Source: a virus
Lineage: Duplodnaviria > Caudoviricetes
DNA length: 64,000 bases
Strand: one strand, 5' to 3'
Virus record (IMG/VR): IMGVR_UViG_3300033066_001054
Shown: in pieces, positions 20,601 to 47,036 of the stretch
Layout of the letters: each line of letters opens with the position of its first letter
How positions within the stretch are numbered: the stretch's first letter is position 1
Notes under the pieces: generated by a model
What the model was told of the DNA's origin: nothing
Seen by the model: the letters and a program-made list of their open reading frames with translations, nothing else
Database searches by the model: none
Position numbers and translations under genes: made by a program

Positions 20601-21949
20601 AGTTCTACGGCAAGCGAATGGCATCAAAGAAAGATGTCGAGAACACAGTGTTCGGCTGGATGTCAGATTTTGTCCACGATGGTCGAATCGACAGCTACGC
20701 ACTTGCTGAAGCCGCAAGCCTTCTTGGAGCACGACCTGTTGCTGCAACCAATTTGCTTGGTCGACTACTCGAGCGACAAGCAGCTATTTCGGTTACGGAT
20801 GAAAAATGCACAACCAAGAGGCTTACAGCCACTGTGAGTGACTTCGAAGACCTAGACCCCAAGTCAAGCGACTTCGACCAGCAGTTCAGAATGCGTGCAA
20901 TGGACATCTTCCGACAAGCTGGTTATGATGTTGACGATGGCACATTCAATCTTACGAGTTTGAGCGTTGACCAGTCTGGAAACATTCAAGCCGAGGTTTC
21001 TGCACGACTCACCAAGACATTCTGTGTCGAGGGAAGCACAGCAGGCGCAGGCATGGGCGTAGTAGACGACTTGCCAGTTGAGGCCACTATTGCAGAAAAT
21101 GCACCAATGGAAGACGAATCTGGCAATCTCTATACTGTTTCAGCCATGGATGTGCTTGGAATGGAGCGAACTGCTCAAGCCGCACCAGGAATGGGCGGTG
21201 CAATGGGCGGCGGAATGGGAATGCCACCAGCAGCACCAGCAGGCGGTGGTGTTGACCCATTAGCCGGCGCTGCTGACCCAATGGGTGGAGGTTTTGCCTC
21301 AATGACAGTGCCTAGCGAATCTGGGGCACCAGGAACCGAGGCTGTTGATAACCCTGCAAATGCAGACGATATGTCAGAGCCAGGCACCAAACAACCATGG
21401 GGAACCGTGTGTCCTGTTTGTGGTTCGAAGAATGTCAGCATTGCTAACGGCGAAGGCGAATGCCAGAGCTGTGGCACACAACTGAAGTTCAAGCTGATGG
21501 TCGAAGCCGCACCAAGCACAGATGATGCTGGTGGTGATGGTGAAGGCGCAGATGCTGGAATGGGCGATATGGGTGCAGATGCTGGAATGGGTGATATGGG
21601 CGCAATGCCTGGTGGCGATATGGGCGCAGCACCTCCAATGCCTGCAGGTGGAGCACCAACCGACCCAATGATGATGCAAGCAAGTTGGACAAGTTCGCCA
21701 TTGGTATGGCAACGATTTGCCTCGGCTGGACAAGGCGTTTCTGAAAAAGAAGCAGCTAAGGCCAGACAAGCAATGAAACAATTGCCAGTTGGCCATGTTT
21801 GCCCAGGTTGTGGCGACCGCGAACAAATCGAAAAGATTCGAAACAAGACCATTTGTACTGCTTGCGGTACGGTGGCTGTTTCCAAGGTCGCAGCAGTAGA
21901 AGGACAACCAAATCTGCTGTCCAACACCATCTACTGGATACTCGAATAA
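17693..21949 (+). CDS. Prohead (capsid maturation) protease with long C-terminal extension and Zn-ribbons
   Basis: N-terminal HK97/assemblin-type pattern NANGDYF..EEL...YKTFEGCPIHTNHD...VSMGC...FIELSLVNDGA; C-terminal CxxC pairs; lies between portal and MCP. Confidence 0.8.
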   Translation: MLRKGISGSLIGRNQIEFIDPAEARRVIIAAKKGKQSLYADPSDVLNRDVDGDFDLLKEMNDRQGYNLLWVRCRAIDADTVNANGDYFSAEELLKEVIHNGKKVPAYKTFEGCPIHTNHDNKDIMKAKGEVVYAEWDDKNQCVWCTFYISEDAYPEIANGIRIGMMSDVSMGCTVESGLCSVCGKEAVRVDDYCEHLKKYKGKRLPGTNTKVYEKNKGIKFIELSLVNDGAFDSCAISELYDQDELTQKALELNRRVAEIRNHVLTAGHLTAGMTPSVRNAYEGMLRTVVSTTTTAVRVAQTQVDNPQLLATNGANANSTVAGILKALGMDARQQLNVLDLLNVALNFLEVAIMQMFTRKDNVDLQHVSKIAKAMSDLQGTMQDLIDDGVDSPVGATAGTGGAAGTLLNPGGGQTGQAPAGQTPGQPAQPYSPAEGGVGQMMSPVQVSERSFTTEKPLNPLLGASNKHQLVWANKDGSEEREVYASRKSGTDNIERFGQSLLALAESVGAGPLAAPMSTRAANNEQPVRSTKKVQNNGDTTKMKNPFQRIASKLRERKPLEVSFSAEAHSPDTNHRIVVSTRGDIEGYYMNRLANWKPQLSDDIISAIEQENLDFALPVLMEDFQNHVRTAQAKNIDIWSDIDLEPEGEKDVKENALEGERHPVKGEGEIIDSYVKTKRTEPAGDRTREDELEAKRTGTDSKVKEELLENAGLYARRDNGQEVHDFLVDDARCGCPDEHIEERLKGRHGRNDKVETRKLASNIATELGRAAYAARVTPEEIIEVSTKIAQREDLEELIALASLGTDTRERTAQRHAFFNNSSVMLGAENAIYHGLGKIVSDDIKAGDVVDGLRAVISERELAGKLITRIAKTMVENSPTTYADVVVKASREEQLRTALNSLADGETETSRGHLKAVLCALAGAADECQAAPEEVINVIASRNPGEIFETLGMYNSASAREARKTLRQREEFYGKRMASKKDVENTVFGWMSDFVHDGRIDSYALAEAASLLGARPVAATNLLGRLLERQAAISVTDEKCTTKRLTATVSDFEDLDPKSSDFDQQFRMRAMDIFRQAGYDVDDGTFNLTSLSVDQSGNIQAEVSARLTKTFCVEGSTAGAGMGVVDDLPVEATIAENAPMEDESGNLYTVSAMDVLGMERTAQAAPGMGGAMGGGMGMPPAAPAGGGVDPLAGAADPMGGGFASMTVPSESGAPGTEAVDNPANADDMSEPGTKQPWGTVCPVCGSKNVSIANGEGECQSCGTQLKFKLMVEAAPSTDDAGGDGEGADAGMGDMGADAGMGDMGAMPGGDMGAAPPMPAGGAPTDPMMMQASWTSSPLVWQRFASAGQGVSEKEAAKARQAMKQLPVGHVCPGCGDREQIEKIRNKTICTACGTVAVSKVAAVEGQPNLLSNTIYWILE

Positions 21950-21951
21950 GG

Positions 21952-22043
21952 TTTGCCGCGAACCTATCGCGGCAAATTATTCCCTCTCGAGGGGACTTTT
22001 TTAAGAATCTCGCTCACTTTCGTAGGTGAGCGAGATTCTTTTT
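21952..22043 (+). terminator. Cluster of hairpins/terminator(s) between protease and scaffold genes
   Basis: tttgccgcga-N5-tcgcggcaaa (21952-21976); weak tccct/gggga plus T run (21981-22002); aagaatctcgctcac-N8-gtgagcgagattctt plus T run (22003-22043). Confidence 0.75.
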
Positions 22044-22049
22044 CATAAG
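22022..22049 (+). promoter_or_regulatory. Putative phage promoter GTAGGT-N16-CATAAG
   Basis: Consensus match overlapping the third hairpin, upstream of scaffold-decoration-MCP. Confidence 0.55.
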
Positions 22050-22121
22050 AAGCCAGATAGACGAAGTGTTGGCAAGCGCCGATACCCCACCCAAATCATA
22101 AATTAGGGAGCAAATCTGACT

Positions 22122-24038
22122 ATGGCTACAACAAAACAAGAAGGAGGACTGGACGCACGCACCAAAGCGGTTCGCTTGGCAATGCTACAGGAATCCGACG
22201 CGGACGATTTTCGACAATGCGTTCGCGAAGTGCAAGCCAGTACAGGACTTTCCGAAGCGGAAGCTCGGATTGTTGCTGGAGCACTTAGAAGTGAAATGCT
22301 TCCCAAGGTCGCTCAATCTCTCGGACTAGAGGAGGATGACATTGCAGACTTTGCAAACAAACTCCCAGGTGACGAAGATGATGCAGACGGGGAGCAACCG
22401 ACCACAGATTTCGCTGACGACAAGGTTGAAGACGAAGATGACTTCGTTGAAGAACCACAAGATGATACAGCCGCCATTCGAGGGGATGCTCTCGATATGG
22501 GTGGTGAAGACGCCATCGAAGACGACATGAGCGATGTAGACGACTTGGGTACAGAACAGACCCTTGAGATTCAAGTGCCTGCGGGCAAAGTAGACGAGGT
22601 TCAAGAAGCGATTCGTTCGATTCTTGGAACCGATGCTTTTGGCCTTGGCGGAGATTCTGAATTCAATTTCAAAGACGACGAAGAAGGAGATTTTGGAGAT
22701 GAAAATTTCGAAGATATGCCTTTGGAAGACGATGACGAAGATTTGAATTTCGAAGATGAAAACATTGGGGAAGACGCCCCGAACACAGGAAAACAGGTGA
22801 TTAGCATGTCCAACAAGCAAAAGGCTGGCCGTGAAGTCAGGGCTGCTGATGAGCAGGTGAAACCAAAAGACCGAGGTCTTGGAAGTGACACTAGCCACGG
22901 AGGCAAACCTTTCCAATATGCGGCAGATGCCCAATATCAGGGTGAAGACAAACGACCTGGCATGACCCTTGAGGACAGTGCAGGCAATTCACTCCGCGAC
23001 CAAAACCCGACTTTCGCAGACGCGACAGTCCCCGCCAAAAACCCCGAGAAACTTCAGTTGAAGAACTCGTACAAGACCTTCAAATACGAAGGTGCCGATG
23101 GTGACATCGAGTACGACATGAGCAGCGAAGTTTTCGAAGTCCCCTCTGCCGGTGAAAAGGCCGGAGGCGAATTTGAAGTTCCAACTCAAATGACCAGTAC
23201 TCTTGACCGCAAGACTACTGTGGCCACTTTGAATAGTAACGTCGAAAGAGTCGCTGGGGAAAAAGCAACCGACGACAGTGATTATGTCACTGCAAACAAC
23301 GAAGAGCTTTATGTTACTTCTGACAATCGCACCGTAGGTCGCGATGAGTTCGAAGAGCATGTCATTGACACCTTGGTGGCAAGCGGCATGACAGAGAAGG
23401 AAGTACTTGCGATGTCATTCGCAGAAGGGCTCGAGCTATACGGCAATATTGTCGAACAGCGCACTGCTGCAAGCAATGCAATGGGCGACATTACCCGCGC
23501 ACATGCTGAAAGGCAGGCTCGCATCAATAAACTGGCAGCCGACATTAAGGTCGAGATTGCTGGTGGAACTGAAGAGCCAGATGGCACAGACGAGACAATT
23601 GAGGAAGCCCTTAAGGAATCTCGAGAAGCCATGAGAGACACATTCATCCGCGAGGCTGAATTGTTCAAAAAGCGCGTTAAGGCCGCTTATGGCGTAACTA
23701 CTCGACTCGTAATCGCTGGAATTATCAACGATAACGAAGTTGACAATCACGTAGACACTTGGCTCAAGGATAACCTGAGCGTGGGTGCCATGCTTAAGCA
23801 AGGCAACTTCATGCTTCGGGCTGCGTCCAAGACGACCGACCGCACCGTACAAGCCGGCAACAACAGTGGCAACACTCGAACTGCTGGAGTATCGGTAAAC
23901 CCTGCCCTTGTAACACCGAATCTCGGTAGCACACAGGAGGTTAAGGACCGTCTCGCCAATCTTTTCACTGTTGGTGGAATCCCACGTAACGCATTTGATG
24001 CTTACAAAGATAACGACAACAACAGCAGGGACTTTTAA
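22122..24038 (+). CDS. Probable capsid scaffolding/prohead core protein
   Basis: 638 aa, very D/E-rich N-half and helical C-terminal part, between protease and MCP; GGGAG upstream. Confidence 0.65.
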   Translation: MATTKQEGGLDARTKAVRLAMLQESDADDFRQCVREVQASTGLSEAEARIVAGALRSEMLPKVAQSLGLEEDDIADFANKLPGDEDDADGEQPTTDFADDKVEDEDDFVEEPQDDTAAIRGDALDMGGEDAIEDDMSDVDDLGTEQTLEIQVPAGKVDEVQEAIRSILGTDAFGLGGDSEFNFKDDEEGDFGDENFEDMPLEDDDEDLNFEDENIGEDAPNTGKQVISMSNKQKAGREVRAADEQVKPKDRGLGSDTSHGGKPFQYAADAQYQGEDKRPGMTLEDSAGNSLRDQNPTFADATVPAKNPEKLQLKNSYKTFKYEGADGDIEYDMSSEVFEVPSAGEKAGGEFEVPTQMTSTLDRKTTVATLNSNVERVAGEKATDDSDYVTANNEELYVTSDNRTVGRDEFEEHVIDTLVASGMTEKEVLAMSFAEGLELYGNIVEQRTAASNAMGDITRAHAERQARINKLAADIKVEIAGGTEEPDGTDETIEEALKESREAMRDTFIREAELFKKRVKAAYGVTTRLVIAGIINDNEVDNHVDTWLKDNLSVGAMLKQGNFMLRAASKTTDRTVQAGNNSGNTRTAGVSVNPALVTPNLGSTQEVKDRLANLFTVGGIPRNAFDAYKDNDNNSRDF

Positions 24039-24059
24039 GGAAACACAGGAGAAATAGCA

Positions 24060-24806
24060 ATGGCAATTCGCGAGCTTCAAAGCGTAGTCCACCTTCAATA
24101 CGAAAGCAAGGCCGATTCAAACGTCCAGAACCTCTGGCACGCAGGTCAGGTTCTCGCTATGGAATGGCAGGCAAGCGCTAACAATACAACACAAGGTTTG
24201 GTCCGCCTCGCAAACCGTGGTGACAGTTGGACGACAACTTCGTCTGGTGTCCTCGACAACCCCGGTACAGAGGTACGAGCAAACATCGTAGGTCTTTCTG
24301 CCGACGACACGGCGCGAACTGGCAACACCGGCATTTATGTCGACCCAGTCGGTTCCACCTATGTTGGCACAGGTGTAGGTTCTTCCGCATCGTTTACCGA
24401 CAACACAAATGGTTTCTATTCAGCGACCAAGCGTGCTCTCGGTGACTATCAGGATGAGCGCATCACCAACGTCACAAACTTGACTGATTCGAACTCCGGT
24501 TACGCCGGTCCTCGACGCTCAGTCGCCGTTTATGCAACACCATCTGCGCAGTTCCTCGTGGACAGCACAGCATTCGTGTCAGCACAGACAGCCACAACTA
24601 ACGGTACGTATCTGGACCAATCTCTTGGTACAGCGTTCGCCCCTGGCGACATTCTTACTGTTGGTGCAGGTGTGTTTGCGAGCGCAAACAACTTCGGTTG
24701 CTTGGTTCGACGCACAGCGGCTGCCGATGGTACTGCTATCGCCCGATTGGACGAGTACAACAGCACCAGCGGCCTTATGAAAATTACACTCTTGATGAGT
24801 CTGTAA
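24060..24806 (+). CDS. Probable head decoration (cement) protein
   Basis: T/S/G/A-rich, beta-type composition; strong AGGAG SD; immediately upstream of MCP. Confidence 0.55.
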   Translation: MAIRELQSVVHLQYESKADSNVQNLWHAGQVLAMEWQASANNTTQGLVRLANRGDSWTTTSSGVLDNPGTEVRANIVGLSADDTARTGNTGIYVDPVGSTYVGTGVGSSASFTDNTNGFYSATKRALGDYQDERITNVTNLTDSNSGYAGPRRSVAVYATPSAQFLVDSTAFVSAQTATTNGTYLDQSLGTAFAPGDILTVGAGVFASANNFGCLVRRTAAADGTAIARLDEYNSTSGLMKITLLMSL

Positions 24807-24830
24807 GCAGGGGTATAGGAGATAACTAAC

Positions 24831-25691
24831 ATGAGCAACATCCGAAACGTATATGGCATTGACGAGCAAAACGAAGAGTTTCTCGCCGCCGCTATGGACA
24901 CCCCCGAAGGTCGCGTCGCATTAGCGCAAGCTATGGTTGAACCCATTAAGACATCTTTGATGTACCAAGGTGTAGGCCGCAAGCTGCTGATGGTTGACGA
25001 ACTGCCGCAGGGTGCCCTTCCTCGCTACGAGCGAGACATCGCAGTTAAGTCTTACGTAATGAGTAAGCGTGGTTCAGTTCCAACGTCTATCGTTGAAGCT
25101 GAAGAGTTGATGGTTCCGGTTCTTGAAATCGCTTGTAACCCAACCGTCAAGCTCAACGAAATCCGTGCCCGACGATTCTATATTGTCGACCGCGCACAGG
25201 TGAGGGCCAAGGACTCATTGCAGCGACAAGAGGACGCCGAAGTCTTCCGCGTTATCAACGCGGCTGTACCTTCAGCACACAACATCACGGTTACTGGTTC
25301 ACTCCAGCCCGAGAACATCAACCTCGCTCTGTCTCTCATTGAAGAGCACGAGTTGATTGGTGCCAAAATTGTTGTGCATCCTCAGCGCTACAAAGACATC
25401 CGAACATGGGGCAAGGAGTTCTATGATGAAGCGACAACTCGCGACATCTTGATGACCGGACTTTTCGGTCACTTGTACTCCGCTGACATTCACGTCAGCA
25501 CCATCGTTCCAAAGAACGCTGTCTACGTATTGGCACCGGCCGCCTTCGTTGGCGCCATGCCAGTCCGCCAGGACATCACCGTTCTTCCGAGCGACGACCC
25601 TCGACGACTCCGCCTCGGCTGGGTCATCTTCGAGGAACTTGGCTTCGCCGTTATCAACGACTACGCCACCGCTCGAATCATCGTTAGCTAA
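24831..25691 (+). CDS. Major capsid protein (compact HK97 fold)
   Basis: Strong AGGAG SD, C-ending codon bias, terminator directly after; spine-helix-like DRAQVRAKDSLQRQEDAEVF, A-domain-like IVVHP and GHLYSADIHVST, terminal GFAVIND...RIIVS. Confidence 0.85.
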   Translation: MSNIRNVYGIDEQNEEFLAAAMDTPEGRVALAQAMVEPIKTSLMYQGVGRKLLMVDELPQGALPRYERDIAVKSYVMSKRGSVPTSIVEAEELMVPVLEIACNPTVKLNEIRARRFYIVDRAQVRAKDSLQRQEDAEVFRVINAAVPSAHNITVTGSLQPENINLALSLIEEHELIGAKIVVHPQRYKDIRTWGKEFYDEATTRDILMTGLFGHLYSADIHVSTIVPKNAVYVLAPAAFVGAMPVRQDITVLPSDDPRRLRLGWVIFEELGFAVINDYATARIIVS

Positions 25692-25709
25692 CGCTACGGT
25701 GAACGACTT

Positions 25710-25743
25710 ACAGGCCCCGCCATAGGCGGGGCCTGTTTTGTTT
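25710..25743 (+). terminator. Intrinsic terminator after MCP
   Basis: acaggccccgcc-ata-ggcggggcctgt followed by tttgttt. Confidence 0.9.
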
Positions 25744-25750
25744 GTATAAG
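25722..25750 (+). promoter_or_regulatory. Putative promoter for the MCP-fragment operon, ATAGGC-N17-TATAAG
   Basis: Near-consensus match overlapping the terminator; TATAAG lies 6 nt before in-frame GTG 25757. Confidence 0.5.
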
Positions 25751-25756
25751 GCTGAA

Positions 25757-25981
25757 GTGGTCGAAAAACAACATAATACAGAGTTGAATAATGGATTCTA
25801 TGACGCAGCGACACAGCGCGATATATTGAAGACAGGTTACTACGGTCATTTGTATTCAGCAAGTATACATGTTAGCACAATGGTTCCTAGAAACACTGTG
25901 GAAACTATGGATAGGGTGTTGCAATCAGAAGAACAGCGTAAGCAACTTTCTGATTACATGCGGTCGTGGTTGAAGAAATGA
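25757..25981 (+). CDS. MCP-fragment mini-protein A (MCP 197-231 plus YMR tail)
   Basis: FYDAATQRDILKTGYYGHLYSASIHVSTMVPRNTV vs MCP, 26/35 identical; tail LSDYMRSW. Start uncertain (the track gives TTG 25742). Confidence 0.85.
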   Translation: MVEKQHNTELNNGFYDAATQRDILKTGYYGHLYSASIHVSTMVPRNTVETMDRVLQSEEQRKQLSDYMRSWLKK

Positions 25982-26223
25982 GCAACGGCGAAATTATACT
26001 ACCAGGTGCCTTCGATGGCGCATTGCCGATGAGAGAAGACATAACGATTTTGCCAGCCACACCTGTGCCACGAGATAAACAGGGACTTGGCTGGGTGGTT
26101 TTTGAAGAAGTTGGTGAAGCAATAATCAACAACTATGCTATTGATAGAATAGTGGTCAGTAATCAAACTCAAGAAGATATCAAACGAGCGCTGGAAGAAT
26201 ACATGAGGAAATATGCAAGGTAG
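25978..26223 (+). CDS. MCP-fragment mini-protein B (MCP 236-286 plus YMR tail)
   Basis: PGAFDGALPMREDITILP (12/18) and LGWVVFEEVGEAIINNYAIDRIVVS (17/25) vs the MCP C-terminus; tail LEEYMRKY; ATGA overlap with A. Confidence 0.85.
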   Translation: MSNGEIILPGAFDGALPMREDITILPATPVPRDKQGLGWVVFEEVGEAIINNYAIDRIVVSNQTQEDIKRALEEYMRKYAR

Positions 26224-26434
26224 CAGTGAATCAAAACCATATAAGGCGTTTGGGCGCAAGCTGTTAATGGTTGACGAATTACCTCAGGGTGCATTAGCAA
26301 AATACGAGCGTGACGTACAAGTGAAATCGTATGTCATACCACGTCGTGGTGGTGTGCCCGGAGCTGTTTCAGAACCTTATGCACCAATTGACACACTCAA
26401 GGAATATATTAGGAAGTGGATGAGTAGTGGCTAA
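26213..26434 (+). CDS. MCP-fragment mini-protein C (MCP 49-84 plus YIR tail)
   Basis: GRKLLMVDELPQGALAKYERDVQVKSYVIPRRGGVP, 28/36 identical; tail LKEYIRKW. Confidence 0.85.
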   Translation: MQGSSESKPYKAFGRKLLMVDELPQGALAKYERDVQVKSYVIPRRGGVPGAVSEPYAPIDTLKEYIRKWMSSG

Positions 26435-26660
26435 AAACACAAATCAACAAAGAGAGGACCAAATAACAGCGGCGCTTAGCACCCCAGAAGGCAAGGCAGC
26501 ACTTCGTGCCGCGATGTCCGCGCCAATACAGACTTCGATAATGTATCAGAACATCGGCGCGAAACTGCTAATGGTAGATTCATTGCCAGACCCTTATGAC
26601 GAATATCCGAATGCCCGTGACGCTGTTAGCGATTACATGAAAAAATGGGTGCAAAAATGA
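26427..26660 (+). CDS. MCP-fragment mini-protein D (MCP 12-59 plus YMK tail)
   Basis: QQREDQITAALSTPEGKAALRAAMSAPIQTSIMYQNIGAKLLMVDSLP, 28/48 identical; tail VSDYMKKW. Confidence 0.85.
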   Translation: MAKNTNQQREDQITAALSTPEGKAALRAAMSAPIQTSIMYQNIGAKLLMVDSLPDPYDEYPNARDAVSDYMKKWVQK

Positions 26661-26851
26661 CCGCGAACCCACTGGCTAACATCAATGCAGCTCTCGAGGC
26701 ATTGGAACAACACGAATTGGCCGGCGCAAAAATCATCATTCATCCGAGCAGGTATGCCGATATTGAGCGATGGAGAAGAGAAGATGACGCCACAATACGC
26801 GAGCAGTTTAGCAAGTACATGCGAGGATATTTGGGTCAAGACATCAAGTAA
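26657..26851 (+). CDS. MCP-fragment mini-protein E (MCP 162-193 plus YMR tail)
   Basis: NINAALEALEQHELAGAKIIIHPSRYADIERW, 20/32 identical; tail FSKYMRGY; ATGA overlap with D. Confidence 0.85.
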   Translation: MTANPLANINAALEALEQHELAGAKIIIHPSRYADIERWRREDDATIREQFSKYMRGYLGQDIK

Positions 26852-27393
26852 TATTCAGAGACATCTTGACCCATGGCTGCTTCACATTTGTCAACAATTT
26901 TGACAATGTAGTCTGATATTCCTTTATGTTGCAATGAACTGAGTTTCGACATTTCACTGAGTGTGTATGTCATTTCTTTGAATGATTCCATACGTCGCTC
27001 ATCTTGTGCCAACATTTGTTGACCAATCAAAACACCGAACATCTGCGGGTCTTGGACCCCAAAATCCTTGCTGTGGTATTTGATTGTGTGAATAGACCTG
27101 ATTGCGTGTTCTGCATGCTCGAATTCTGTTAAACAACGAATTAAAGAGGTGTACAGTGCTGCCAATTCTCCAGTCATCTGCACTTCGCCAGACACCAACA
27201 CTGGCAATAGACTGTATTGGATTGTTCGAATACAGGCACTCATTTCAGCGTTGGGCTCGAATGCCATGTTCGATGGCATTTCGTCCGGGGACTCATTGAG
27301 TTGTTGCTGAATGGTCGACGTGTTATTGTCGATTCTCTCTTGCTCAATTCCCTGGATGTCGTCTGGAATACTTGCCTTTCTAAATCGTTTCAT
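26836..27393 (-). CDS. Hypothetical helical protein
   Basis: 185-aa ORF, ATGA-coupled to the upstream minus-strand gene. Confidence 0.7.
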   Translation of the reverse strand: MKRFRKASIPDDIQGIEQERIDNNTSTIQQQLNESPDEMPSNMAFEPNAEMSACIRTIQYSLLPVLVSGEVQMTGELAALYTSLIRCLTEFEHAEHAIRSIHTIKYHSKDFGVQDPQMFGVLIGQQMLAQDERRMESFKEMTYTLSEMSKLSSLQHKGISDYIVKIVDKCEAAMGQDVSEYYLMS

Positions 27394-30504: not shown

Positions 30505-32952
30505 ATGGCAAGAGTTTCAGTAGAACACAGATTCACCGGAACAACAGGCCCAATTGATAGTCTTTCAGCACCTACAGTTAGCGTTACAAACATCGGTGCC
30601 ACCGGTGCCACGACATATGGATATCGAGTATCGGCTATCAACAGTGTTGGGGAAACATTGGCCTCGAGTACGGTAACCACCGCGACGGGCAACTCGTCAT
30701 TGACAGGGTCTAACTACAACAGAATTAGCTGGACTAGGGTAATTGGCGCGACAGGATACAAGGTTTACGGACGAACTTCTGGTTCCGAGTTGCTTATGGC
30801 AACCGTTACAACAGCAAATCATTATGATGACACAGGCGCGGTAACGCCATCTGGGGCATTGCCAAGTACAAACACCACAGGGTATTCGTCGTCTAGAACA
30901 TCTATTGGCACCCTGATGCGACAACAAACTGGCACTGCCGATATTGATAAATGGGTTGGCCCATTCCCTGTTGGAATCAGTCGACCCATGGAAGGCAGCA
31001 CTCAGATTCCAGGCATTATGCCGCATGTTATTAGGTGGAGTGGTGATATTGATTGGATTTTCTTGGCCGATAACGCCACCGCAACGACAAGTCGTAGAAT
31101 AGTATTCTACACATACACTCGGTCAACTAATACACTTGCATGGGAGGGCTTTGTCACAATTACCCATCCAAGCGGCACCAACGCCACTATACGTGGATTT
31201 AGAATGGTGTACGACACCTACACTACTGGAACAGTGAGCGTGACCGGAACATCGGTAACCGGAAGTGGTTCAGCTTGGTCAACAAACAGAATTGCTGTTG
31301 GTAGTCGGATTGGATTTGGTTCAACAGACCCAAACTATATTACAAGATGGTATGAAATCTCGGCTATTGGTTCTGACACGGGTATAACACTCGCCGTAGC
31401 GGTTGACGCAAGCGTTGCCGCAAACACACCATATGTCATAGAAGAACTTAGAGTAGTTATGGCTCAAACCAATAACACCGCAACTTCTGGTGGTTTGTTC
31501 GTAGCAAAGGGATTAAGGCCAGAGTTGTTTATCACCTCTGGCACTGCAATTGCGGCTGCTACAACCACCGACAATCAAAGAGCGTGTTATTGGCTTGCAG
31601 ACGCCTCTACTGTTACAAATACAACCTCTCTGGGATTTGGTCTCCAGGCTAAGACCTCATATACAGCACAAAACGTATATGTTTTGGATGGAACATCTGC
31701 ATGTAAGGTGTTTGTTTACAATATCAGGGCGTCATTAACTGGTTTAGCGTCTGGAAAATCAACTTCTGCTCTGTCTTTCTCAACTGGAACACAAACGCTT
31801 ACTGGAACGGCCGGCCAGGTAAATAATGGAAGAATGGGCACGCTGTCTCATGGCCCGGGTTCAGGTATTGAGTGCCTATATTTCTGCACTGGTACTCGTG
31901 TGTATCGAGCCAAAATTACAGATATTGTCAGCGGTTCAACTGTATGGATTTCAGACTGTATGGTTGAGATACCTACGGGTAGCGCAAGTACATATGCCGC
32001 AACCGGTGTGTTGAGCAGTGTGGAGGTAGCGGACTCATTAGACAGGTTAATTATTACTTCTACTGGTGCGTCCGGTGTGAGGCATTACGTTACAAAATAC
32101 CAAACCAATGTAGAACAATTCGATTTGATTTGGGGAGTTGACATAAAACAAATTGACCAAACACTTGCCGACGCCAATACACCGATTGTGCCAGGCAATA
32201 TTCTCGCTACACCATTTACCGTTTGGTCTGAGGCAGGATTAACATACTTGGCCCGCGTAGGCACTGCAGCCACAAACAATCATCTATACGTAGTTCCATT
32301 TGGGGCACATTGGGGATTTCAGTCTGCTGCGCCAACGCAGCGAGTTATCACTCCAGAAATCAGCACACCAAATTGTTTTATGTTTCACAGGGCATGTATG
32401 TCATTTGTGAAAAAACTAGGGGCTGATAAGTTTTCCATATCACCAGAACCAATCAAAATGTTCTATCGAACGAATGGAATTACGGACAATAGTGGTACAT
32501 GGTATGAACTTGATGACTATGCAGATTTATCCGGTGTTGCGCCATCTTCCAGTATACAGTTTATGTTTGAATTCAAAATCATAGGCAATTACTGTGTTCC
32601 AGGTAGGCTGCTGGGGTGTGAGGTTATGTACGAGATTGAAGACACATTGCCGTCACACCTTCAATGGAACCTTAACGATTCCAATAACTCTAATGGCACA
32701 GTTGGGTTTATTCAAAAATCCACTTATGGAAGTGTGCCCAATTTGGAAATCAACTACTATCGCTCAGATAACGATGTTAACTTACTCACGCAAGACAGTA
32801 CATCTAGCACATATGGAGCATTTGAGTATTGGACAGGTGCGGCATGGGCAGCAGGGCTAGGTTCTGATGCAGTTAACCAAAGAAGAAGATTTGTGCCATC
32901 ATCTGGATTGCCAGCAAGCACGAACGTCTACGCTAAAATCAAGGTGATATAA
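30505..32952 (+). CDS. Tail fibre/spike-like protein, paralogue 1
   Basis: T/S/G-rich; N-terminal FN3-like module; GTVSVTGTSVTGSGSAW motif; colinear with the next two genes. Confidence 0.7.
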   Translation: MARVSVEHRFTGTTGPIDSLSAPTVSVTNIGATGATTYGYRVSAINSVGETLASSTVTTATGNSSLTGSNYNRISWTRVIGATGYKVYGRTSGSELLMATVTTANHYDDTGAVTPSGALPSTNTTGYSSSRTSIGTLMRQQTGTADIDKWVGPFPVGISRPMEGSTQIPGIMPHVIRWSGDIDWIFLADNATATTSRRIVFYTYTRSTNTLAWEGFVTITHPSGTNATIRGFRMVYDTYTTGTVSVTGTSVTGSGSAWSTNRIAVGSRIGFGSTDPNYITRWYEISAIGSDTGITLAVAVDASVAANTPYVIEELRVVMAQTNNTATSGGLFVAKGLRPELFITSGTAIAAATTTDNQRACYWLADASTVTNTTSLGFGLQAKTSYTAQNVYVLDGTSACKVFVYNIRASLTGLASGKSTSALSFSTGTQTLTGTAGQVNNGRMGTLSHGPGSGIECLYFCTGTRVYRAKITDIVSGSTVWISDCMVEIPTGSASTYAATGVLSSVEVADSLDRLIITSTGASGVRHYVTKYQTNVEQFDLIWGVDIKQIDQTLADANTPIVPGNILATPFTVWSEAGLTYLARVGTAATNNHLYVVPFGAHWGFQSAAPTQRVITPEISTPNCFMFHRACMSFVKKLGADKFSISPEPIKMFYRTNGITDNSGTWYELDDYADLSGVAPSSSIQFMFEFKIIGNYCVPGRLLGCEVMYEIEDTLPSHLQWNLNDSNNSNGTVGFIQKSTYGSVPNLEINYYRSDNDVNLLTQDSTSSTYGAFEYWTGAAWAAGLGSDAVNQRRRFVPSSGLPASTNVYAKIKVI

Positions 32953-35396
32953 TGGGTAAGGTAGTGGTCGAATCAGTATTTAGCACTGCCTCTTTTGCGC
33001 CAATTGATACGATAGGCACGCCAACTGGTGTCGCAGTAACAAATGTTGGCACTGCAGGTGCTACAACATACGGATATCGAATATCTGCGGTTAATAGTGT
33101 CGGAGAAACACTTGCGTCATCAAGTACAACAACCACTACCGGAAATGCCGCCCTCAGTGCTTCTAACTTCAATAGGATTGCCTGGAGTCGAGTGATGGAT
33201 GCCGCGTCTTACAAGATTTATGGCAGGACTAATGGTTCAGAATTGTATATGGGCACCACAACTGGTCTGCATTTCGATGACACCGGTGCTGTTACCCCAT
33301 CTGGTGCTTTGCCTGGCTCAGATACGTCAAAATATGATTCAACAAAGGTGTGTATAGGTACGGCACTCGAATACCAGTCATCGGACAAAAGCGTTGGTCC
33401 ATTGCCCGTACAAATTGCTAGACCATCAGAAGGCAATATTCAAGTACCAATAAACTTTGTTACCGCAGTCACGTGGAGCAGCAATATTGATTGGATTTTT
33501 GGTGCTGACGCTGCAAGTGCTGCGGCCACAAGACGAATTGTCATGTTTGAATACAATCGGAGTACTGGTGTGCTTACGAGTCGCGGTTTTATCACACTTA
33601 CATACCCTCCTGCAACCAACCATACCATTCGAGGAATTGCTGTTGGATATGATGTGTACACCAAAGGTTCTGTGGCTGTCACTGGAACTGCTGTTACCGG
33701 CACTGGGTCTACATGGACAACAGACCGCCTGGCTGTGGGCAGTCGTATAGGATTTGGTTCTACGGACCCCTCTCAAATTACCAGATGGTATGAGATTTCT
33801 GCTGTTGGAACTGACACAAGTATTACGCTTACTGCGTCAATTGACGCCACCATTGCCGCTGGTTCAGCATATTGTATTGAAGACCTTAGAATTTACACAA
33901 CCACCACAAATGCCACATCAACCAACGGAGGACTGTTTGTGGTTAAGGGCCTAAAACCTGAAGTTTTTACCTATGCAGGAACTACAATATCAGCCGCTAC
34001 GAATGCCGATAGCATCCGTGCAGTTTACTGGCTGGCAGATGCGTCTACGGTCACTAATACTGGCTCGTGTGGTGCGTGCTTAGAAACCAAGGCAAGCTGG
34101 ACTTCACAATTTTTGTATGTTTTAGACAACGCATCAAATAGCAAGTTTTACAAATACAACGTGCGTGCCGCGCTTACGCCAGCATCTGGAAAAGATACAA
34201 CGTCTTTGAATTTACAAACAGGAACATCTGCTGTTACAGGAGTCATACAATCATTCAACAATGGTCGACTCGTAACAACGGGGCATGGGCCAGGAAGCGG
34301 TGCATCTTGCATATATTACACGACTGCTTCAAGGGTGTATAGAGCCGCTGTATCTGGTATCACTGCAGCAAGCACTACATTCAACAACGACAACATGACC
34401 GAGGTGCCGCCCGGTGGAACCAGTACATATGCTGCGACTTCGGCTATTCAGGGAATAGACTACATATATGGAATCGACAGATTTGCTGTGTACACCACCA
34501 GCAGCGGTTCTACACGCCATTATGTTACACAATACCAAACCGGCGGAAGTCAGTTTGATAGTATTTTCTCAGTAGATAGCAAGCAAATAGACCACACACT
34601 ATGCAACCCAGAGATGGCACCACCATCATTGGTTCAGAATACAAGTGTTAACGTGACGTCATTCACAAACTATAACACTACGTATTTTACTAAAGGCGGA
34701 GGAACTGGATTGCTGTCTTGGCTGTATACTTGTAATTTTGGCAGTGATTATGCATTTACGCATATTTCAGGCAACGACCAGTCTATCATAACACCAGAAA
34801 TGACATGTACTGGCAACGTGATGTTTTATCGTGTCTATGTCAATCACTTAAGAGCACATGGTTCAGACAAATACAACCATATACCTGCTGAACCTTTCAA
34901 AATCTGGTATCGCACTAGTGGTATTAGTGACAATAGCGGCGGGTGGACTTTGGTCCCTGCCGGGGGAGTGTTAACTGGTGTAACCGCAACCAGCTCTATT
35001 CAATTCAGAATACGATTCAAAACAATTGGGGCACATTGTCTCCCAACCAAGATATATGGCGTATGTGTTGTGTATGAATCCTCGGCTGATATGCCATCAC
35101 ACCTAAAATGGAATTTTGCTGATACAAATAACAGTACTGGTACTGTTGGATTTGTGCAATGTTGTTATTATGGCAGTGTCCCAAACTTACAAATTGACTA
35201 CTACAGAGCAGATACAGATGCTAACGTATTGTCCCAGGCTAGTACAAGTAGTACTAATGGTGTTTTTGAATATTGGGATGGTTCTGCATGGACGGCTGGT
35301 CTGGGTACAGATACAATTGATATACGACGCAGGTTTAGGCCAACGGCGTCGTTACCAACCGGTGTCAATGTCTACGCAAGGGTGAAGGTAATTTAA
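32952..35396 (+). CDS. Tail fibre/spike-like protein, paralogue 2
   Basis: Shares GSRIGFGSTDP, YWLADASTVTNT, HGPG and PSHL.WN blocks; TAATG coupling. Confidence 0.7.
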   Translation: MGKVVVESVFSTASFAPIDTIGTPTGVAVTNVGTAGATTYGYRISAVNSVGETLASSSTTTTTGNAALSASNFNRIAWSRVMDAASYKIYGRTNGSELYMGTTTGLHFDDTGAVTPSGALPGSDTSKYDSTKVCIGTALEYQSSDKSVGPLPVQIARPSEGNIQVPINFVTAVTWSSNIDWIFGADAASAAATRRIVMFEYNRSTGVLTSRGFITLTYPPATNHTIRGIAVGYDVYTKGSVAVTGTAVTGTGSTWTTDRLAVGSRIGFGSTDPSQITRWYEISAVGTDTSITLTASIDATIAAGSAYCIEDLRIYTTTTNATSTNGGLFVVKGLKPEVFTYAGTTISAATNADSIRAVYWLADASTVTNTGSCGACLETKASWTSQFLYVLDNASNSKFYKYNVRAALTPASGKDTTSLNLQTGTSAVTGVIQSFNNGRLVTTGHGPGSGASCIYYTTASRVYRAAVSGITAASTTFNNDNMTEVPPGGTSTYAATSAIQGIDYIYGIDRFAVYTTSSGSTRHYVTQYQTGGSQFDSIFSVDSKQIDHTLCNPEMAPPSLVQNTSVNVTSFTNYNTTYFTKGGGTGLLSWLYTCNFGSDYAFTHISGNDQSIITPEMTCTGNVMFYRVYVNHLRAHGSDKYNHIPAEPFKIWYRTSGISDNSGGWTLVPAGGVLTGVTATSSIQFRIRFKTIGAHCLPTKIYGVCVVYESSADMPSHLKWNFADTNNSTGTVGFVQCCYYGSVPNLQIDYYRADTDANVLSQASTSSTNGVFEYWDGSAWTAGLGTDTIDIRRRFRPTASLPTGVNVYARVKVI

Positions 35397-37810
35397 TGGC
35401 TAAAATTGCAGTAGAACATGTTTTTGGAAGTGCCACTGTACCATTAGTGCCACTCGAGGAACCAACCAATGTGTTGGTAACAAATTTTGGCACACCTGGT
35501 GCAACAACGTATACATATTACGTATCGGCATACAATACATATGGCGAAACTCTGGCCACAACAGCGATAACAACGACTGGTAACGGAACTCTTTCTGCAT
35601 CTAATTTCAATCGAATTTCATGGGATAAAGTGTGGGGTGCAACTGGATATTACGTTTACAATAGTTCTGGCGCATTTGCCCCAACTTCAAATTTACATTT
35701 TGATGACGTTGGTACTTCCTCAACAGCAAGAAGCCAACAAGAGTCAAACACCAGTGGATATAACTCACTGTATACATCTGCTGGCACGTTGATGTATCAA
35801 TCAGGAGGGGCCATTGGTCCAATGCCAGTTAAGGTTGCAAGACCGATGGGGCAATCAACGGCATTTCAGTGCGCATTTCCTTCTGTTGTATCATGGAGTC
35901 CTACGGTTGATTGGGTGTTTTTAATTGAAGGTAGTGCGGCGGCGGCGACGAGGCGGGCGATGCTTTACGAATTTGACCGCAGTACAGATGCGTTTACATG
36001 GAAGGGTTATGTCACATTAACATTTCCAACAGCTACAAACCATACAGTTCGCGGCTTTGCAATGACCTATGACATATATGCCACCGGTACTGTGAGTGTA
36101 TCTGGAACGGCAGTTACTGGTTCTGGCACCGCTTGGTCTACAAGTAGGCTTGCGGCAGGTTCGCGTATTGGATTTGGCTCAACAGACCCCAATCAAATTA
36201 GTACATGGTATGAAATCTCAACCATTGGTTCCGACACAAGTATAACCTTAACAGCAACTGCTGGTACAATATCGGCCAATAGTGTATATTGCATCGAAGA
36301 CTTAAGAGCGGTTGTTTCAACCACTAACGCTACTGCGGCCAATGGCGGATTATTTGTAGCCAAGGGACTGAAGTATGAGAACTTTGTGTCGGGCGGCACC
36401 ACTATTTCAGCGGGCGTGTCGACAGATAATGTGCGTGCTGTATTTTGGCTTGCTGATGCCAGTACAGTAACAAATACCGTTGCTTGTGGCAATGCCGTAT
36501 CTGACAAAACAGATTGGAATACTCAATATTGTTACAGTATAGATACAACAGCAACACCAAAAGTATACAAGTATAACTTACGTGCTTCTTTATCTGGTTT
36601 GTCCTCTGGTAAATCAACATCAGCACTTGTTTTGATAACCGGAACTCAAACAGTTACTGGCACTACCTCTCAACAAAACAATGGCGAAGTAGTTGTGGCA
36701 AATCACGGACCCGGAAAGGATATTGAGTGCCTTTATTTCGTTACTACAACACGCGCCTATAGGGCAAAAACATCAGAAATTGTCAACGGCTCTACGGTGT
36801 GGATTGCAGACTGCTATGTAGAAATCCCGCCAGGTGGCACCAATACATTCGCCGCCACATCTGCGCTAGGATACATTGAACACACTGATTTTATGGATGA
36901 TTTTGTGGTGTATTCAACTGGTGCGACTTCTTTTCGTAGTTATATTACAGATTATGCTTCTGCCATTTATCCTTTTGAGTCAATGCTTGGTTATGACACT
37001 AAGCAATTAGACCAATCTGGCGCAGATGCAAATTCAGCTCCGCACCCTTCAATTGGTGTTTCTCAATTGGTTTCGTGGAATGAAGAAGGGATGCACTACG
37101 TTTTAAGGCAAAACTCTTCATCCACACTAAATCAATTGTATGCAGTACCGCTTGCTGCATGTTATACTCACGCATGGGAAAGCGGTCGTGAACAATATGT
37201 TATCACGCCAGCTCTGCCAACCCCAAATGGGGCGACTTTGTATCGAGCATATGCCAATACCCTTTTGGCGCACGGCGGCACAGATGCGTTAATGGTTGAG
37301 GCCGAACCTGTTAAAATATGGTACAGAACCGAAGGAATATATGATAACTCTGGTGTGTGGTACTTATTATCGGATAACGGTGATTTAACTGGTGTAAAGA
37401 CCGGCAAAGACATTCAATTTAGGCTTGCATTTAAGGTTATTGGCGGGCATCAACTGCCATCTAAAGCATATTCTGTTTGTGTGGTTTACGACACTGATAC
37501 AGATTTGCCATCACATTTACAATGGAATATGGGAGACACAAATTCAAGCACTGGCATTGTTGGTTTTATTCAAAAAGGAACTTACGGAAGCGTACCCAAT
37601 TTGCAAATATCATACTATCGTTCAGATAACGACCAGCTTATCTTAACCCAGGCAAGTACCGGTTCTACTTATGGTGCATTTGAGTACTGGAATGGTTCTT
37701 CGTGGGCATCTGGACTTGGTACTGACACCAACGGAATACGTCGAAGGTTCAACCCAACCATAGGTATCTTGACAGGAATTAACGTATATTGTAAATTGAA
37801 GGTGGTGTAA
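35396..37810 (+). CDS. Tail fibre/spike-like protein, paralogue 3
   Basis: Same conserved blocks; TAATG coupling. Confidence 0.7.
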   Translation: MAKIAVEHVFGSATVPLVPLEEPTNVLVTNFGTPGATTYTYYVSAYNTYGETLATTAITTTGNGTLSASNFNRISWDKVWGATGYYVYNSSGAFAPTSNLHFDDVGTSSTARSQQESNTSGYNSLYTSAGTLMYQSGGAIGPMPVKVARPMGQSTAFQCAFPSVVSWSPTVDWVFLIEGSAAAATRRAMLYEFDRSTDAFTWKGYVTLTFPTATNHTVRGFAMTYDIYATGTVSVSGTAVTGSGTAWSTSRLAAGSRIGFGSTDPNQISTWYEISTIGSDTSITLTATAGTISANSVYCIEDLRAVVSTTNATAANGGLFVAKGLKYENFVSGGTTISAGVSTDNVRAVFWLADASTVTNTVACGNAVSDKTDWNTQYCYSIDTTATPKVYKYNLRASLSGLSSGKSTSALVLITGTQTVTGTTSQQNNGEVVVANHGPGKDIECLYFVTTTRAYRAKTSEIVNGSTVWIADCYVEIPPGGTNTFAATSALGYIEHTDFMDDFVVYSTGATSFRSYITDYASAIYPFESMLGYDTKQLDQSGADANSAPHPSIGVSQLVSWNEEGMHYVLRQNSSSTLNQLYAVPLAACYTHAWESGREQYVITPALPTPNGATLYRAYANTLLAHGGTDALMVEAEPVKIWYRTEGIYDNSGVWYLLSDNGDLTGVKTGKDIQFRLAFKVIGGHQLPSKAYSVCVVYDTDTDLPSHLQWNMGDTNSSTGIVGFIQKGTYGSVPNLQISYYRSDNDQLILTQASTGSTYGAFEYWNGSSWASGLGTDTNGIRRRFNPTIGILTGINVYCKLKVV

Positions 37811-45475: not shown

Positions 45476-47036
45476 ACCACTAGCAACAAAATCGCTTATC
45501 AAGAAAATATCATCGGGCATTCTGTGTGTAATGCTTTCGGTGTTCTTTTTCGTCGTTGGTATCCCTCTACTCGTATTGGCGTACATTGGACTGTGCTTCG
45601 GATATGCCGGAAAGACACTTGATAGGATTGGTTGTGCTATGTGTGCTTATGTAGAGTTCTTGCTCAGAAGCATCATTGACTCATTGCACAAAGTGTGTCA
45701 CATAGACCCATATGACAGCGAGTATTGCGGATGCTGGCCGCCGCATTGTGGTTGGCATCCACATTGTGGTCATGCACCCCATTGTGGATGCCCAGCGCAT
45801 GGATGCTCATGGCTTTCGATTTTAGTTATGCTTTTGAACATCATAGCAATGCCATATTTCTGGTGTACCAAAAAACCACACAAGGTCAATAAGCCCCGTG
45901 TTGGTGAAAACGAAAAACTTCGAGTGGCATATGTCAGTGTGTGGGGCACACCGTGTGGAATCGCCACATACAACGAGGAACTTGTTCCATATCTGAGAGA
46001 GTACGCCGATGTTAAGGTATTCGCAGAGTACGCCGATACAGACAAAAACCAAGGACTCGACCGAGACCCTGAGTGGGTGTTGCGCTGCTGGAGCAGACAC
46101 GAGCATCCAAAATCCAAACTTATGCACGAATTGCTCGAATATCAGCCCCATGTCGTGCATATTGGTCATGAGTATGGGTTCTTTGCAAGGGCTTACATGT
46201 ACACATCTTTGGTAACCTGGCTAAAGGGTCGTAAAATTCCGGTGCTCACCACGTTCCATAGTGTTTATGAGCACCAGGATAAGGTTGTAACAGAAGTGTC
46301 TTCACCAAACATCATTGTTCACACAGAGGCCGGAAGGGACTGTCTTGTAAAGAAAGGACTTCAGCCAAGCAAAATACACACAATACCACATGGCACAGAG
46401 GTTCTTGCTGGTACACAAGATGCGCCAGAACTGTTGCCGAGTATGTGGAACACATGGCACACAAAGCACACTATATTTCACCCAGGGTTCATGTTTGGAT
46501 ACAAAGGTCATGTAAGGATGCTTCATATTGTGGCCAGACTGAAAAAGAAATACCCTGATGTGCATTACATCATTCAGGGCTCAGAAAACCCACACACAAT
46601 GAAGGAACATGATGCGCTATATGCACAAATCATTGAAACCGCAGATGCACTTGGGCTTTCATCAAATGTAACGGTAAACCGTGGGTTTGTGTCCAAAGAG
46701 GTATTGTTGTCATTTATCAGAACAACTCGTGTGTGCGTATTGCCATATCAAAGCCACCCTGACCACGAGGTGCGTGCAACATCTGGTATAGCCAGGGTGG
46801 TCGCCGGCACAGAGACACCACTCGTTGTAAGTTCTGTACACTTGTTTGATGACCTTGACGATGTTGCTACAAAGTGCATTGACGATGATGCAATGTATAA
46901 CGCGATTGACAACATCTTTAAGGACAACGACGTCAAAAACTCTCAGGTATACAGCCGAGTGAGGTTCTTAAAAGCAACTAACTGGAAGCATATCGCCAAA
47001 AAGACTTTTGACGTCTACAAGCAAATCATTCGCTGA
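45462..47036 (+). CDS. GT4-like (GT-B) glycosyltransferase with hydrophobic, Cys/His-rich N-terminal extension
   Basis: CGIATYNEEL, HIGHEYG, TTFH, IIVHT, IPHG, GFMFGYKG, VLPY and TSG motifs. Confidence 0.85.
   Translation: MQEHKPLATKSLIKKISSGILCVMLSVFFFVVGIPLLVLAYIGLCFGYAGKTLDRIGCAMCAYVEFLLRSIIDSLHKVCHIDPYDSEYCGCWPPHCGWHPHCGHAPHCGCPAHGCSWLSILVMLLNIIAMPYFWCTKKPHKVNKPRVGENEKLRVAYVSVWGTPCGIATYNEELVPYLREYADVKVFAEYADTDKNQGLDRDPEWVLRCWSRHEHPKSKLMHELLEYQPHVVHIGHEYGFFARAYMYTSLVTWLKGRKIPVLTTFHSVYEHQDKVVTEVSSPNIIVHTEAGRDCLVKKGLQPSKIHTIPHGTEVLAGTQDAPELLPSMWNTWHTKHTIFHPGFMFGYKGHVRMLHIVARLKKKYPDVHYIIQGSENPHTMKEHDALYAQIIETADALGLSSNVTVNRGFVSKEVLLSFIRTTRVCVLPYQSHPDHEVRATSGIARVVAGTETPLVVSSVHLFDDLDDVATKCIDDDAMYNAIDNIFKDNDVKNSQVYSRVRFLKATNWKHIAKKTFDVYKQIIR

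Follow-up and report, generated by a model that had tools for sequence, protein, structure and literature searches.

The DNA analysed here (the window) is a stretch of 64,000 nucleotides (nt) from the virus record IMGVR_UViG_3300033066_001054 (Duplodnaviria; Caudoviricetes), in which the gene for the major capsid protein (MCP) and an intrinsic terminator are followed by an array of five mini-genes, m1 to m5, each encoding a piece of the capsid protein and ending in a common C-terminal tail. The MCP matched the major head protein family PHROG 2522 (3e-68) and the solved gp27 chain in PDB 6WKK (1.5e-89) and was 48.6% identical to gp27 of the 497-kb Bacillus phage G. Its close relative, L003, lies on a complete IMG/VR genome of 478,840 bp with terminal repeats, and the window thus comes from a megaphage of about 480 kb. 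The features of the locus are listed below; the lengths of m1 to m5, in amino acids (aa), are counted from their most likely starts.

24831..25691, + strand: MCP gene, 286 aa, HK97 fold; source family of all five fragments.
25710..25746, + strand: strong intrinsic terminator between the MCP gene and the array; 12-bp stem with 10 G-C pairs, then a T-run.
25757..25981, + strand: m1, 74 aa; GTG start, alternative TTG at 25742; MCP residues 197-231; tail LSDYMRSWLKK.
25978..26223, + strand: m2, 81 aa; ATG overlapping the m1 stop as ATGA; MCP residues 233-286; tail LEEYMRKYAR.
26213..26434, + strand: m3, 73 aa; ATG with GAGGA before the start; MCP residues 45-89; tail LKEYIRKWMSSG.
26427..26660, + strand: m4, 77 aa; GTG start; MCP residues 11-59; tail VSDYMKKWVQK.
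26657..26851, + strand: m5, 64 aa, the last gene of the array; ATG overlapping the m4 stop (ATGA), alternative ATG at 26645; MCP residues 162-195; tail FSKYMRGYLGQDIK.
26836..27393, - strand: convergent gene for a 185-aa protein, its 3' end overlapping the end of m5 by 16 nt; right border of the array.

The five overlapping open reading frames (ORFs) of 64 to 81 aa were found where the first-pass annotation had placed them, after the MCP terminator, and its claim that they hold MCP segments in scrambled order was confirmed by local alignment and by tblastn of the MCP (24831-25688) against the window. Identity to the MCP was 74% for m1 (26/35, residues 197-231), 55% for m2 (residues 233-286), 67% for m3 (30/45, residues 45-89), 57% for m4 (28/49, residues 11-59), and 61% for m5 (20/33, residues 162-194). 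E values of these matches ranged from 3e-25 to 5e-12, compared with 0.48 for the next-best match anywhere in the 64 kb, and a window-wide self-search revealed no other large window protein with small fragment copies. Two further points also held, namely that two pieces overlap (m3 and m4 have KLLMVDxLP in common) and that MCP residues from about 90 to 160 are in none of the five. An HK97-fold MCP as defined by PHROG 2522 and NF042927 has the full fold, with N-arm, E-loop, spine helix, P-domain, and A-domain, in one chain of about 280 aa, which the mini-proteins do not have: only 33 to 56 residues of the MCP profile were matched in each. By sequence, then, they are MCP derivatives and not capsid proteins, the spine-helix region (90-160) being missing from all five.

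Fragments were assigned to parts of the fold from the order of elements in HK97 together with a low-confidence secondary-structure string of the MCP, which was the only part used, with caution, of an AlphaFold2 (AF2) model built from an 11-sequence alignment (predicted local distance difference test score [pLDDT], 37). On this assignment, m4 would correspond to the N-arm plus the first strand of the E-loop, m3 to the E-loop, m5 and m1 to two segments of the A-domain (a helix and strands in the case of m1), and m2 to the C-terminal P-domain hairpin plus the last strand; the part of the MCP left uncopied would be the strand after the E-loop and the long spine helix. The AF2 model of m2 had a mean pLDDT of 46. 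The predicted complex of MCP and m3, run without controls, scored 0.00 in both runs, which is evidence neither way.

The m1/m2 and m4/m5 junctions are ATGA overlaps, and at the other two junctions the genes overlap by 8 to 11 nt, an arrangement that is the usual signature of translational coupling and suggests it here. Purine runs resembling Shine-Dalgarno sequences lie upstream of the mini-ORF starts and are clearest for m3 and m4. No sigma-70-like promoter was found for the array, and the TGTATAAG motif was not enriched as a promoter element of the array (2 matches versus 1.6 expected). When the mini-proteins, a profile of their tail, and a C-terminal module from another lineage (L064, described below) were compared with Pfam, PHROGs, PADLOC, and NCBIfam, only MCP-fragment or chance-level matches were obtained; for the mini-proteins these were one chance-level match in Pfam and the MCP family alone in PHROGs.

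Each ORF does have its own start and stop, as had been claimed, whereas the non-MCP flanks described along with them are not arbitrary, as all five end in the shared tail. A six-frame translation of the window contained its motif, Φ-x-[DEK]-Y-[MI]-[RK]-x-[WY]-Φ, at seven places, five of them the C-termini of the mini-proteins, 2 to 6 residues before the stop. It makes up the core of a roughly 15-residue amphipathic helix; in m2, AF2 placed a helix at residues 65 to 79 with low confidence (pLDDT, about 60). Tail codons differ among the five genes, and m5 keeps its tail although no gene start follows, from which it follows that the tail is conserved at the protein level. The tail signature of each paralogue was kept across lineages. 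In 580 kb of related loci the tail was found on MCP-fragment mini-proteins alone, and in the 64 kb it was on no other ORF. The tail is part of the design. Two other readings of it were considered and rejected. That it is a genome-wide tag on many unrelated small proteins was rejected after a pattern search of the complete relative G001 (478,840 bp), in which the tail DNA pattern was not enriched (2 matches versus 3 and 3 in controls), and of the 64 kb and the 580 kb of related loci. That it is a diverged piece of the MCP, either the spine helix or residues 203-215, was rejected after comparison of 13 tails with the MCP alignment (profile-profile probability, 0.2%); before this comparison, the tails of m5 and of the L048 m3 had looked collinear with the MCP by eye. 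The tail profile matched nothing below an E value of 0.09 among PDB chains.

The array was present in related contigs from independent assemblies, L049 from Logan, L050 and L051 from the Joint Genome Institute (JGI), and L065 from a GenBank metagenome assembly, and an assembly chimera, which the first-pass annotation had named as a refuting outcome, is thereby excluded as its source. In L049 to L051 (85 to 91% nt identity) all five ORFs were intact and their order was unchanged, and in L046 to L048 (73% nt identity), contigs that begin inside m2, m2 to m5 were intact. Every insertion or deletion in the array among relatives was a multiple of three. Orthologues were identified for m1 (in L051, called from the same GTG, and in L065), m2 (P0030 to P0034, L048, and L065), m3 (P0002 to P0009, 63 to 90% identical and 71 to 78 aa long), m4 (L046 to L048, L050, and L065), and m5 (L048, L050, P0036, and P0037). 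The ratio of nonsynonymous to synonymous change (dN/dS), calculated by the Nei-Gojobori method against L050/L051, was 0.15 for m2, 0.22 for m3, 0.17 for m4, and 0.08 for m5; against L048 it was 0.18 to 0.24 for m2 and m3. For m1 it was 0.40, a value based on eight changes only. With frames, starts, and tails conserved, a dN/dS of 0.08 to 0.24 for m2 to m5, and indels in multiples of three, the earlier view that this is not a decayed or frameshifted duplicate was upheld, and all indications from the sequences are that the five ORFs are real genes under purifying selection.

At the nucleotide level the mini-genes were 54 to 70% identical to the MCP gene, with a longest exact match of 12 nt. Among codons for the same residue, 79 of 132 differed synonymously between mini-genes and the MCP gene, so far as to indicate that synonymous sites are saturated, and the mini-genes differed at 32% of the A, 52% of the C, 37% of the G, and 35% of the T positions of the MCP gene, that is, without adenine bias. 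Low nucleotide identity, synonymous divergence, and the lack of adenine bias together exclude a recent duplication, silent recombination cassettes, and the template of a diversity-generating retroelement (DGR); the synonymous divergence from the MCP gene also indicates long-standing selection on the peptide sequence. The view that the array is debris or acts at the DNA level, as scars of endonuclease recombination, as silent donors like pilS, or as a DGR template, is therefore one we consider very improbable. It can draw on true scars in relatives (a 33-aa remnant of the MCP C-terminus in L005 and a 41-aa remnant of m5 in L003). Scars, however, would not be expected to have dN/dS far below 1 and conserved starts, ribosome-binding sites, overlaps, and tails; a 12-nt longest match at 54 to 70% identity is too little for homologous recombination; and mismatches without adenine bias (A, 32%; C, 52%) do not suit a DGR. 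A Pfam scan of ten neighbouring proteins, which covered those ten only, revealed no reverse transcriptase. The dN/dS and divergence results, as read from these sequences, contradict the debris and DNA-cassette readings alike.

What is conserved in the fragments is preferentially what is conserved in the capsid protein. Mini-proteins of the window matched 91 of 120 residues that are invariant in the MCP family (76%) versus 52 of 115 variable ones (45%); m3 alone kept 24 of 26 invariant residues, and over all lineages 338 of 469 invariant MCP positions were kept versus 194 of 430 variable ones. The mini-proteins thus appear to mimic conserved features of the MCP, more than mere drift would leave. 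In a tree, the concatenated fragments of three lineages formed one clade (support, 1.0), which was placed on a long branch beside the window's own MCP with weak support (0.18). Of the 23 sites where the own MCP departs from the consensus of its clade, 12 have the consensus residue in the fragments, 5 share the own-lineage residue, and 6 have another residue. The MCP itself had a dN/dS of 0.01 versus relatives. These comparisons identify the fragments as old paralogues of the own-lineage MCP that have evolved several times faster than the MCP, and not as recent copies. Raw alignment scores were slightly higher to a clade of MCPs with 77% identity, and the fragments scored about equally against the own MCP and those of relatives. 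A foreign origin from the 77%-identity clade was considered and rejected, given the position of the fragments by the own MCP in the tree, weakly supported as it is, and five shared derived residues. Apart from the MCP, the phages of the 77%-identity clade are distant, with about 31% identity in the scaffold and about 38% in the decoration protein, and they had no fragments within 6 kb of the MCP gene.

The array is not present in all close relatives. L003 was 92% nt-identical upstream, and its MCP differed from that of the window at about 3 of 286 residues, but the equivalent of window positions 25752-26747 was missing, and a 41-aa remnant of the C-terminus of m5 (its 3' third) was left behind. 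The remnant indicates that the array was lost in L003, and its absence from a phage with a nearly identical MCP indicates that it is dispensable. The terminator sequence after the MCP gene was kept in L003 as well as in L049 to L051. The convergent 185-aa gene was kept both in L003, which has no array, and in L050, which has one, and is thus independent of the array. A metagenome scan added one new locus, L065, in which a gene for a LAGLIDADG-type endonuclease is followed by at least five tail-bearing mini-genes, among them an extra one of 54 aa (MCP residues 58-78) and one of 105 aa (MCP residues 10-87); fragment content varied and every member had the tail. Relatives carrying arrays of varying fragment content, for which a search had been suggested, therefore do exist. 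No array, only the MCP itself, was found in phage G, the megaphage LR745208, and five large megaphage records, of which four were at least 99% complete by CheckV, and scans of IMG/VR for m4 and for the L064 module yielded no relatives. On these comparisons the array is an accessory element with an arms-race-like distribution.

Genes for LAGLIDADG-type homing endonucleases were also seen directly 3' of the MCP gene in L005 (6977-8443) and L064 (6013-7224), and the L065 contig begins inside one (1-972), directly 5' of the mini-gene array. In L005 the true scar, the remnant of the MCP C-terminus, follows the endonuclease gene. Judging from these contigs, insertions seem to favour the position just 3' of the MCP gene as a hot spot, and the array may hitch-hike on gene conversion driven by the endonucleases. 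Elsewhere, an Endonuclease_7 (PF02945) gene (L046:3640-4074) lies between an RNase_T gene and a 131-aa gene in L046 and L047 and is not at the same position in L049 and L050, another mobile endonuclease polymorphism.

Short proteins matching the MCP were collected, and their contigs, once inspected, revealed capsid fragments on other constant parts, or handles, in other phage-G-like lineages. Three overlapping mini-genes in L064 encode MCP residues 85-116, 235-284, and 12-49, each followed by the same 55-aa C-terminal module, which contains ...DIEDWIDESYWPEW...; two copies of the module were 87% nt-identical, and the ESM Atlas gave no usable match to it. Over a length of 123 nt, one L064 fragment still had 85% nt identity with the MCP gene of its own phage, which argues for a recent duplication and capture. 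In L063, two adjacent genes start with the same signal resembling those of the twin-arginine translocation (Tat) pathway, followed by MCP residues 94-124 in one and 12-81 in the other, and at least eight distinct proteins consist of a Tat-like signal and MCP residues from about 12 to 85. TIGR01409 was above its cut-off in three Tat-like proteins (P0023, P0104, and P0108). Where their context was visible, the Tat-like MCP-fragment genes lay among nucleotide-metabolism or small accessory genes and not among head genes. No twin-arginine signal (S/T-R-R-x-F-L-K plus a hydrophobic region) was found at the N-termini of m1 to m5. L039 and L055 have scattered genes with N-arm, E-loop, and C-terminal fragments 3 to 8 kb downstream of the MCP gene, some with runs of 16 to 17 residues identical to the resident MCP. 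Comparison of these loci indicates that the design of a fragment plus a constant module arose independently in other phage-G-like lineages, with other handles. One of the Tat-signal proteins, P0104 (152 aa, on a 94,319-bp contig), contains the MCP N-arm/E-loop region twice, once in part and once more fully, with EPIK...IGRKLL in both copies, and has a second SRRNFLKM motif near its C-terminus; it may have arisen by internal duplication or by the fusion of two cassette units.

We propose, tentatively and at somewhat less than even chances, that the mini-proteins are best read as non-assembling baits, or decoys, for a factor that recognises the MCP. Each consists of a short leader, a copy of a 33- to 56-residue MCP segment, and the shared C-terminal amphipathic helix of about 15 residues. 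Between them the five segments cover the N-arm, the E-loop, the P-domain hairpin at the C-terminus, and two parts of the A-domain, leaving out only the spine-helix region. Such pieces cannot build a capsid and yet keep the family-invariant residues, so that a factor recognising those parts of newly made MCP would bind the pieces too. The factor bound would most probably be a host protein that senses or attacks capsid protein, and the common helix would give all five a single fate (co-assembly, tethering, or sequestration) and so draw the factor off the real MCP. Expression of m1 to m5, the nature of their partners, and a protective effect of binding are our inferences. Among bacterial defences, Avs7/8/10 (PMC13581612) and type I Thoeris sense MCPs, and a decoy role against host antiviral factors was proposed by the authors who described fragment fusions in Bodo saltans virus (PMC5871332). 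A Tat-type signal for export or anchoring would be of more use for removing or relocating a bound factor than for building capsids. Selection on mimic peptides, a private helix, dispensability and turnover, and convergent handles that include export signals are, taken as a whole, fitted best by baits, with the handle determining what would become of bait and captive alike.

Several considerations weigh against baits. Lit with the Gol peptide and CapRel are the best-studied cases, and in these binding a piece of the MCP activates defence and does not block it, and a decoy would have to bind the sensor without triggering it. Several of the fragments belong to the core of the folded MCP, as strands or helices hidden from its surface; because of this, and because m2 has no fold of its own in AF2, they are unlikely to mimic a folded surface, and the proposal would fit only a factor that recognises segments in the unfolded or nascent state. 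Lying behind the MCP terminator without a recognisable promoter, the array may be expressed late and weakly, a drawback in a pre-emptive decoy, and the Tat-type proteins and those with the 55-aa module in other lineages may have a different role.

The mini-proteins might instead bind the MCP itself, occupying subunit docking sites or intercalating during folding (compare Ty1 p22 and laboratory-made inhibitory fragments), and thus poison the capsid of a co-infecting relative or act as a brake or chaperone in the phage's own assembly. We regard this as the main rival, less likely than baits but to be taken seriously, as the MCP-invariant residues that are kept presumably serve in many cases for subunit contacts or folding, and the N-arm and E-loop act in trans in HK97-fold capsids. 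The array also adjoins the MCP gene at a site with homing endonuclease genes in L065, L064, and L005, and an intron endonuclease is reported to mediate competition between co-infecting phages (PMC11620839). Having the consensus residue at 12 of the 23 sites at which the own MCP is deviant, the fragments could leave the own MCP partially insensitive. However, fragments about equally similar to the own and the relatives' MCPs would be expected to poison the phage itself, which weakens the idea of a competitor-specific poison; L003, with an essentially identical MCP, does without the array, which is therefore not needed for assembly, and this deletion in a near-identical phage weakens the idea of a modulator of own assembly. 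Moreover, the Tat handles of related designs would take the pieces out of the cytoplasm, where capsids form.

Two further explanations, both improbable in our view, concern the tail and the unfoldable nature of the pieces. Were the mini-proteins minor components of the virion or procapsid, the basic amphipathic helix would target the pieces to the capsid or bind coat protein as a scaffold does, and so load them into the head to be packaged or to occupy special positions of the lattice, in the manner of the coat-binding C-terminal helices of scaffolding proteins and the targeting peptides of T4 internal proteins, and a position in the head-gene block with a leaky-terminator-type arrangement would give substoichiometric late expression. 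Against this stand a tail that is private to five proteins, on no other ORF of the 64 kb and not enriched in the complete relative, the dispensability of the array, and phage G, which has no such genes and whose shell, in the capsid study behind PDB 6WKK, reportedly consists of the MCP and a decoration protein. With a still smaller probability, unfoldable MCP pieces could tie up chaperones or membrane proteases of the host, much as FtsH is occupied by the CIII peptide of lambda, and so either pre-induce the folding capacity that thousands of MCP copies require or shield the MCP from degradation. The AF2 results, with no confident fold for the m2 fragment and a low-confidence helix for the tail, agree with this, as does the very large amount of folded MCP needed for a T=52 capsid, the figure for phage G. 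Any unfolded peptide would serve this purpose, however, and neither the MCP-invariant residues that are kept nor the repeated copying of the same MCP segments by several lineages would be explained.

Baits for an MCP-recognising factor remain the preferred reading. We also put forward, with more doubt, a wider form of it suggested by comparison of the lineages, in which giant phages would repeatedly have evolved capsid tiles on an interchangeable handle that capture, relocate, or neutralise MCP-recognising host proteins, with new tiles taken from the resident gene. Several bacterial immune systems recognise capsid proteins, whereas phages are not known to counter them with copies of the capsid protein; the array is a compact, conserved candidate for such a countermeasure. 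If this is true, capsid-tile baits would be the protein-level counterpart of anti-defence decoys, with renewal of their content built in. If the pieces bind capsid protein, they would be natural peptide inhibitors of HK97-fold assembly and a tool for very large (T=52-type) heads. Either way, the recurrent architecture of a fragment plus a handle would be an undescribed class of small phage proteins, and natural controls are at hand in one close relative that lost the array, another with extra members, and other lineages with different handles.

Upstream of the MCP gene lie genes for a highly acidic 638-aa protein (22122-24038) and a 248-aa protein (24060-24806), where phage G has the decoration gene gp26. 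Neither protein matched a Pfam or PHROG family, and from position alone we guess that the former is the scaffold and the latter the decoration protein. The MCP is conserved far above these neighbours (77% identity where the scaffold-like protein has about 31%). G+C content was 0.49 to 0.54 in the head genes (21000-26000) versus a window average of 0.46, and G+C at third codon positions reached 0.75 in the MCP gene and was 0.33 to 0.52 in the mini-genes. Two paralogous pairs of other window proteins were observed, one of about 815 aa with 51% identity (30505-32952 and 35396-37810, both on the + strand) and one of about 250 aa with 34% identity (47036-47809 on the + strand and 52037-52870 on the - strand). 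Two partial NCBI proteins, P0060 (labelled Vibrio parahaemolyticus) and P0086 (labelled Salmonella enterica), were 67 to 83% identical to this megaphage MCP; they lie on contigs of 277 to 365 nt in bacterial assemblies, which they probably entered as contamination or phage reads.

No published phage system with such a layout, and no capsid-fragment decoys or mimics, were found in the literature searched, in agreement with the first-pass annotation, which had known of no described system, and no phage-encoded MCP-fragment inhibitor of Lit, CapRel-SJ46, Avs7/8/10, or Thoeris was found described there. The arrangement is real, conserved, selected, and previously undescribed. The closest precedent is provided by the ankyrin ORFs of the giant Bodo saltans virus (Deeg et al. 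2018, eLife, PMC5871332), which include 5' fragments of essential viral genes and in which fragments of the virus's own essential proteins are joined to a repeated constant module in tandem arrays; the five-gene array likewise combines fragments of an own essential protein with a module common to tandem genes. Bodo saltans virus, in contrast, is a eukaryotic virus, its handle is a long ankyrin repeat instead of a helix of about 15 residues, and its fragments come from catalytic domains (polymerase and MutS), capsid tiling not being described there. The decoy role is in both cases a proposal of the authors. No ankyrin repeat or any other significant domain was detected by Pfam in the mini-proteins.

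Among capsid-derived proteins, Ty1 p22, Fv1, and Gag derivatives of the enJS56A1 type resemble the mini-proteins in that a part of the capsid is expressed separately, does not assemble, and acts by likeness. Those are single large fragments, made by the element or the host as a restriction on the particle and shown to bind Gag, whereas here there are five small virus-encoded tiles with a handle, known from their genes alone. In capsid-sensing immunity, short or conserved parts of the MCP are recognised by host proteins, as with the Lit protease and the Gol peptide of T4 gp23, CapRel-SJ46, Avs7/8/10 (PMC13581612), and type I Thoeris; these systems are host-encoded and would be the targets of the proposed decoys. 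The satellite redirectors, P4 Sid, Staphylococcus aureus pathogenicity island (SaPI) CpmB, TcaP of the phage-inducible chromosomal island-like element (PLE), and Ccm of phage-inducible chromosomal islands (PICI), are, like m1 to m5, small accessory proteins, and theirs act on HK97-fold assembly; unlike m1 to m5, they are satellite-encoded and are not fragments of the helper MCP, Ccm being a full-fold homologue. Finally, pilS and vls cassettes and DGR template repeats also place partial copies beside an expressed gene for a surface structure. Those systems operate on DNA and depend either on long tracts of identity or on a reverse transcriptase that changes adenines specifically. In the array described here, by contrast, no exact match to the MCP gene exceeds 12 nt, adenines are not preferentially changed, each ORF has its own start and stop, and selection acts on the proteins.

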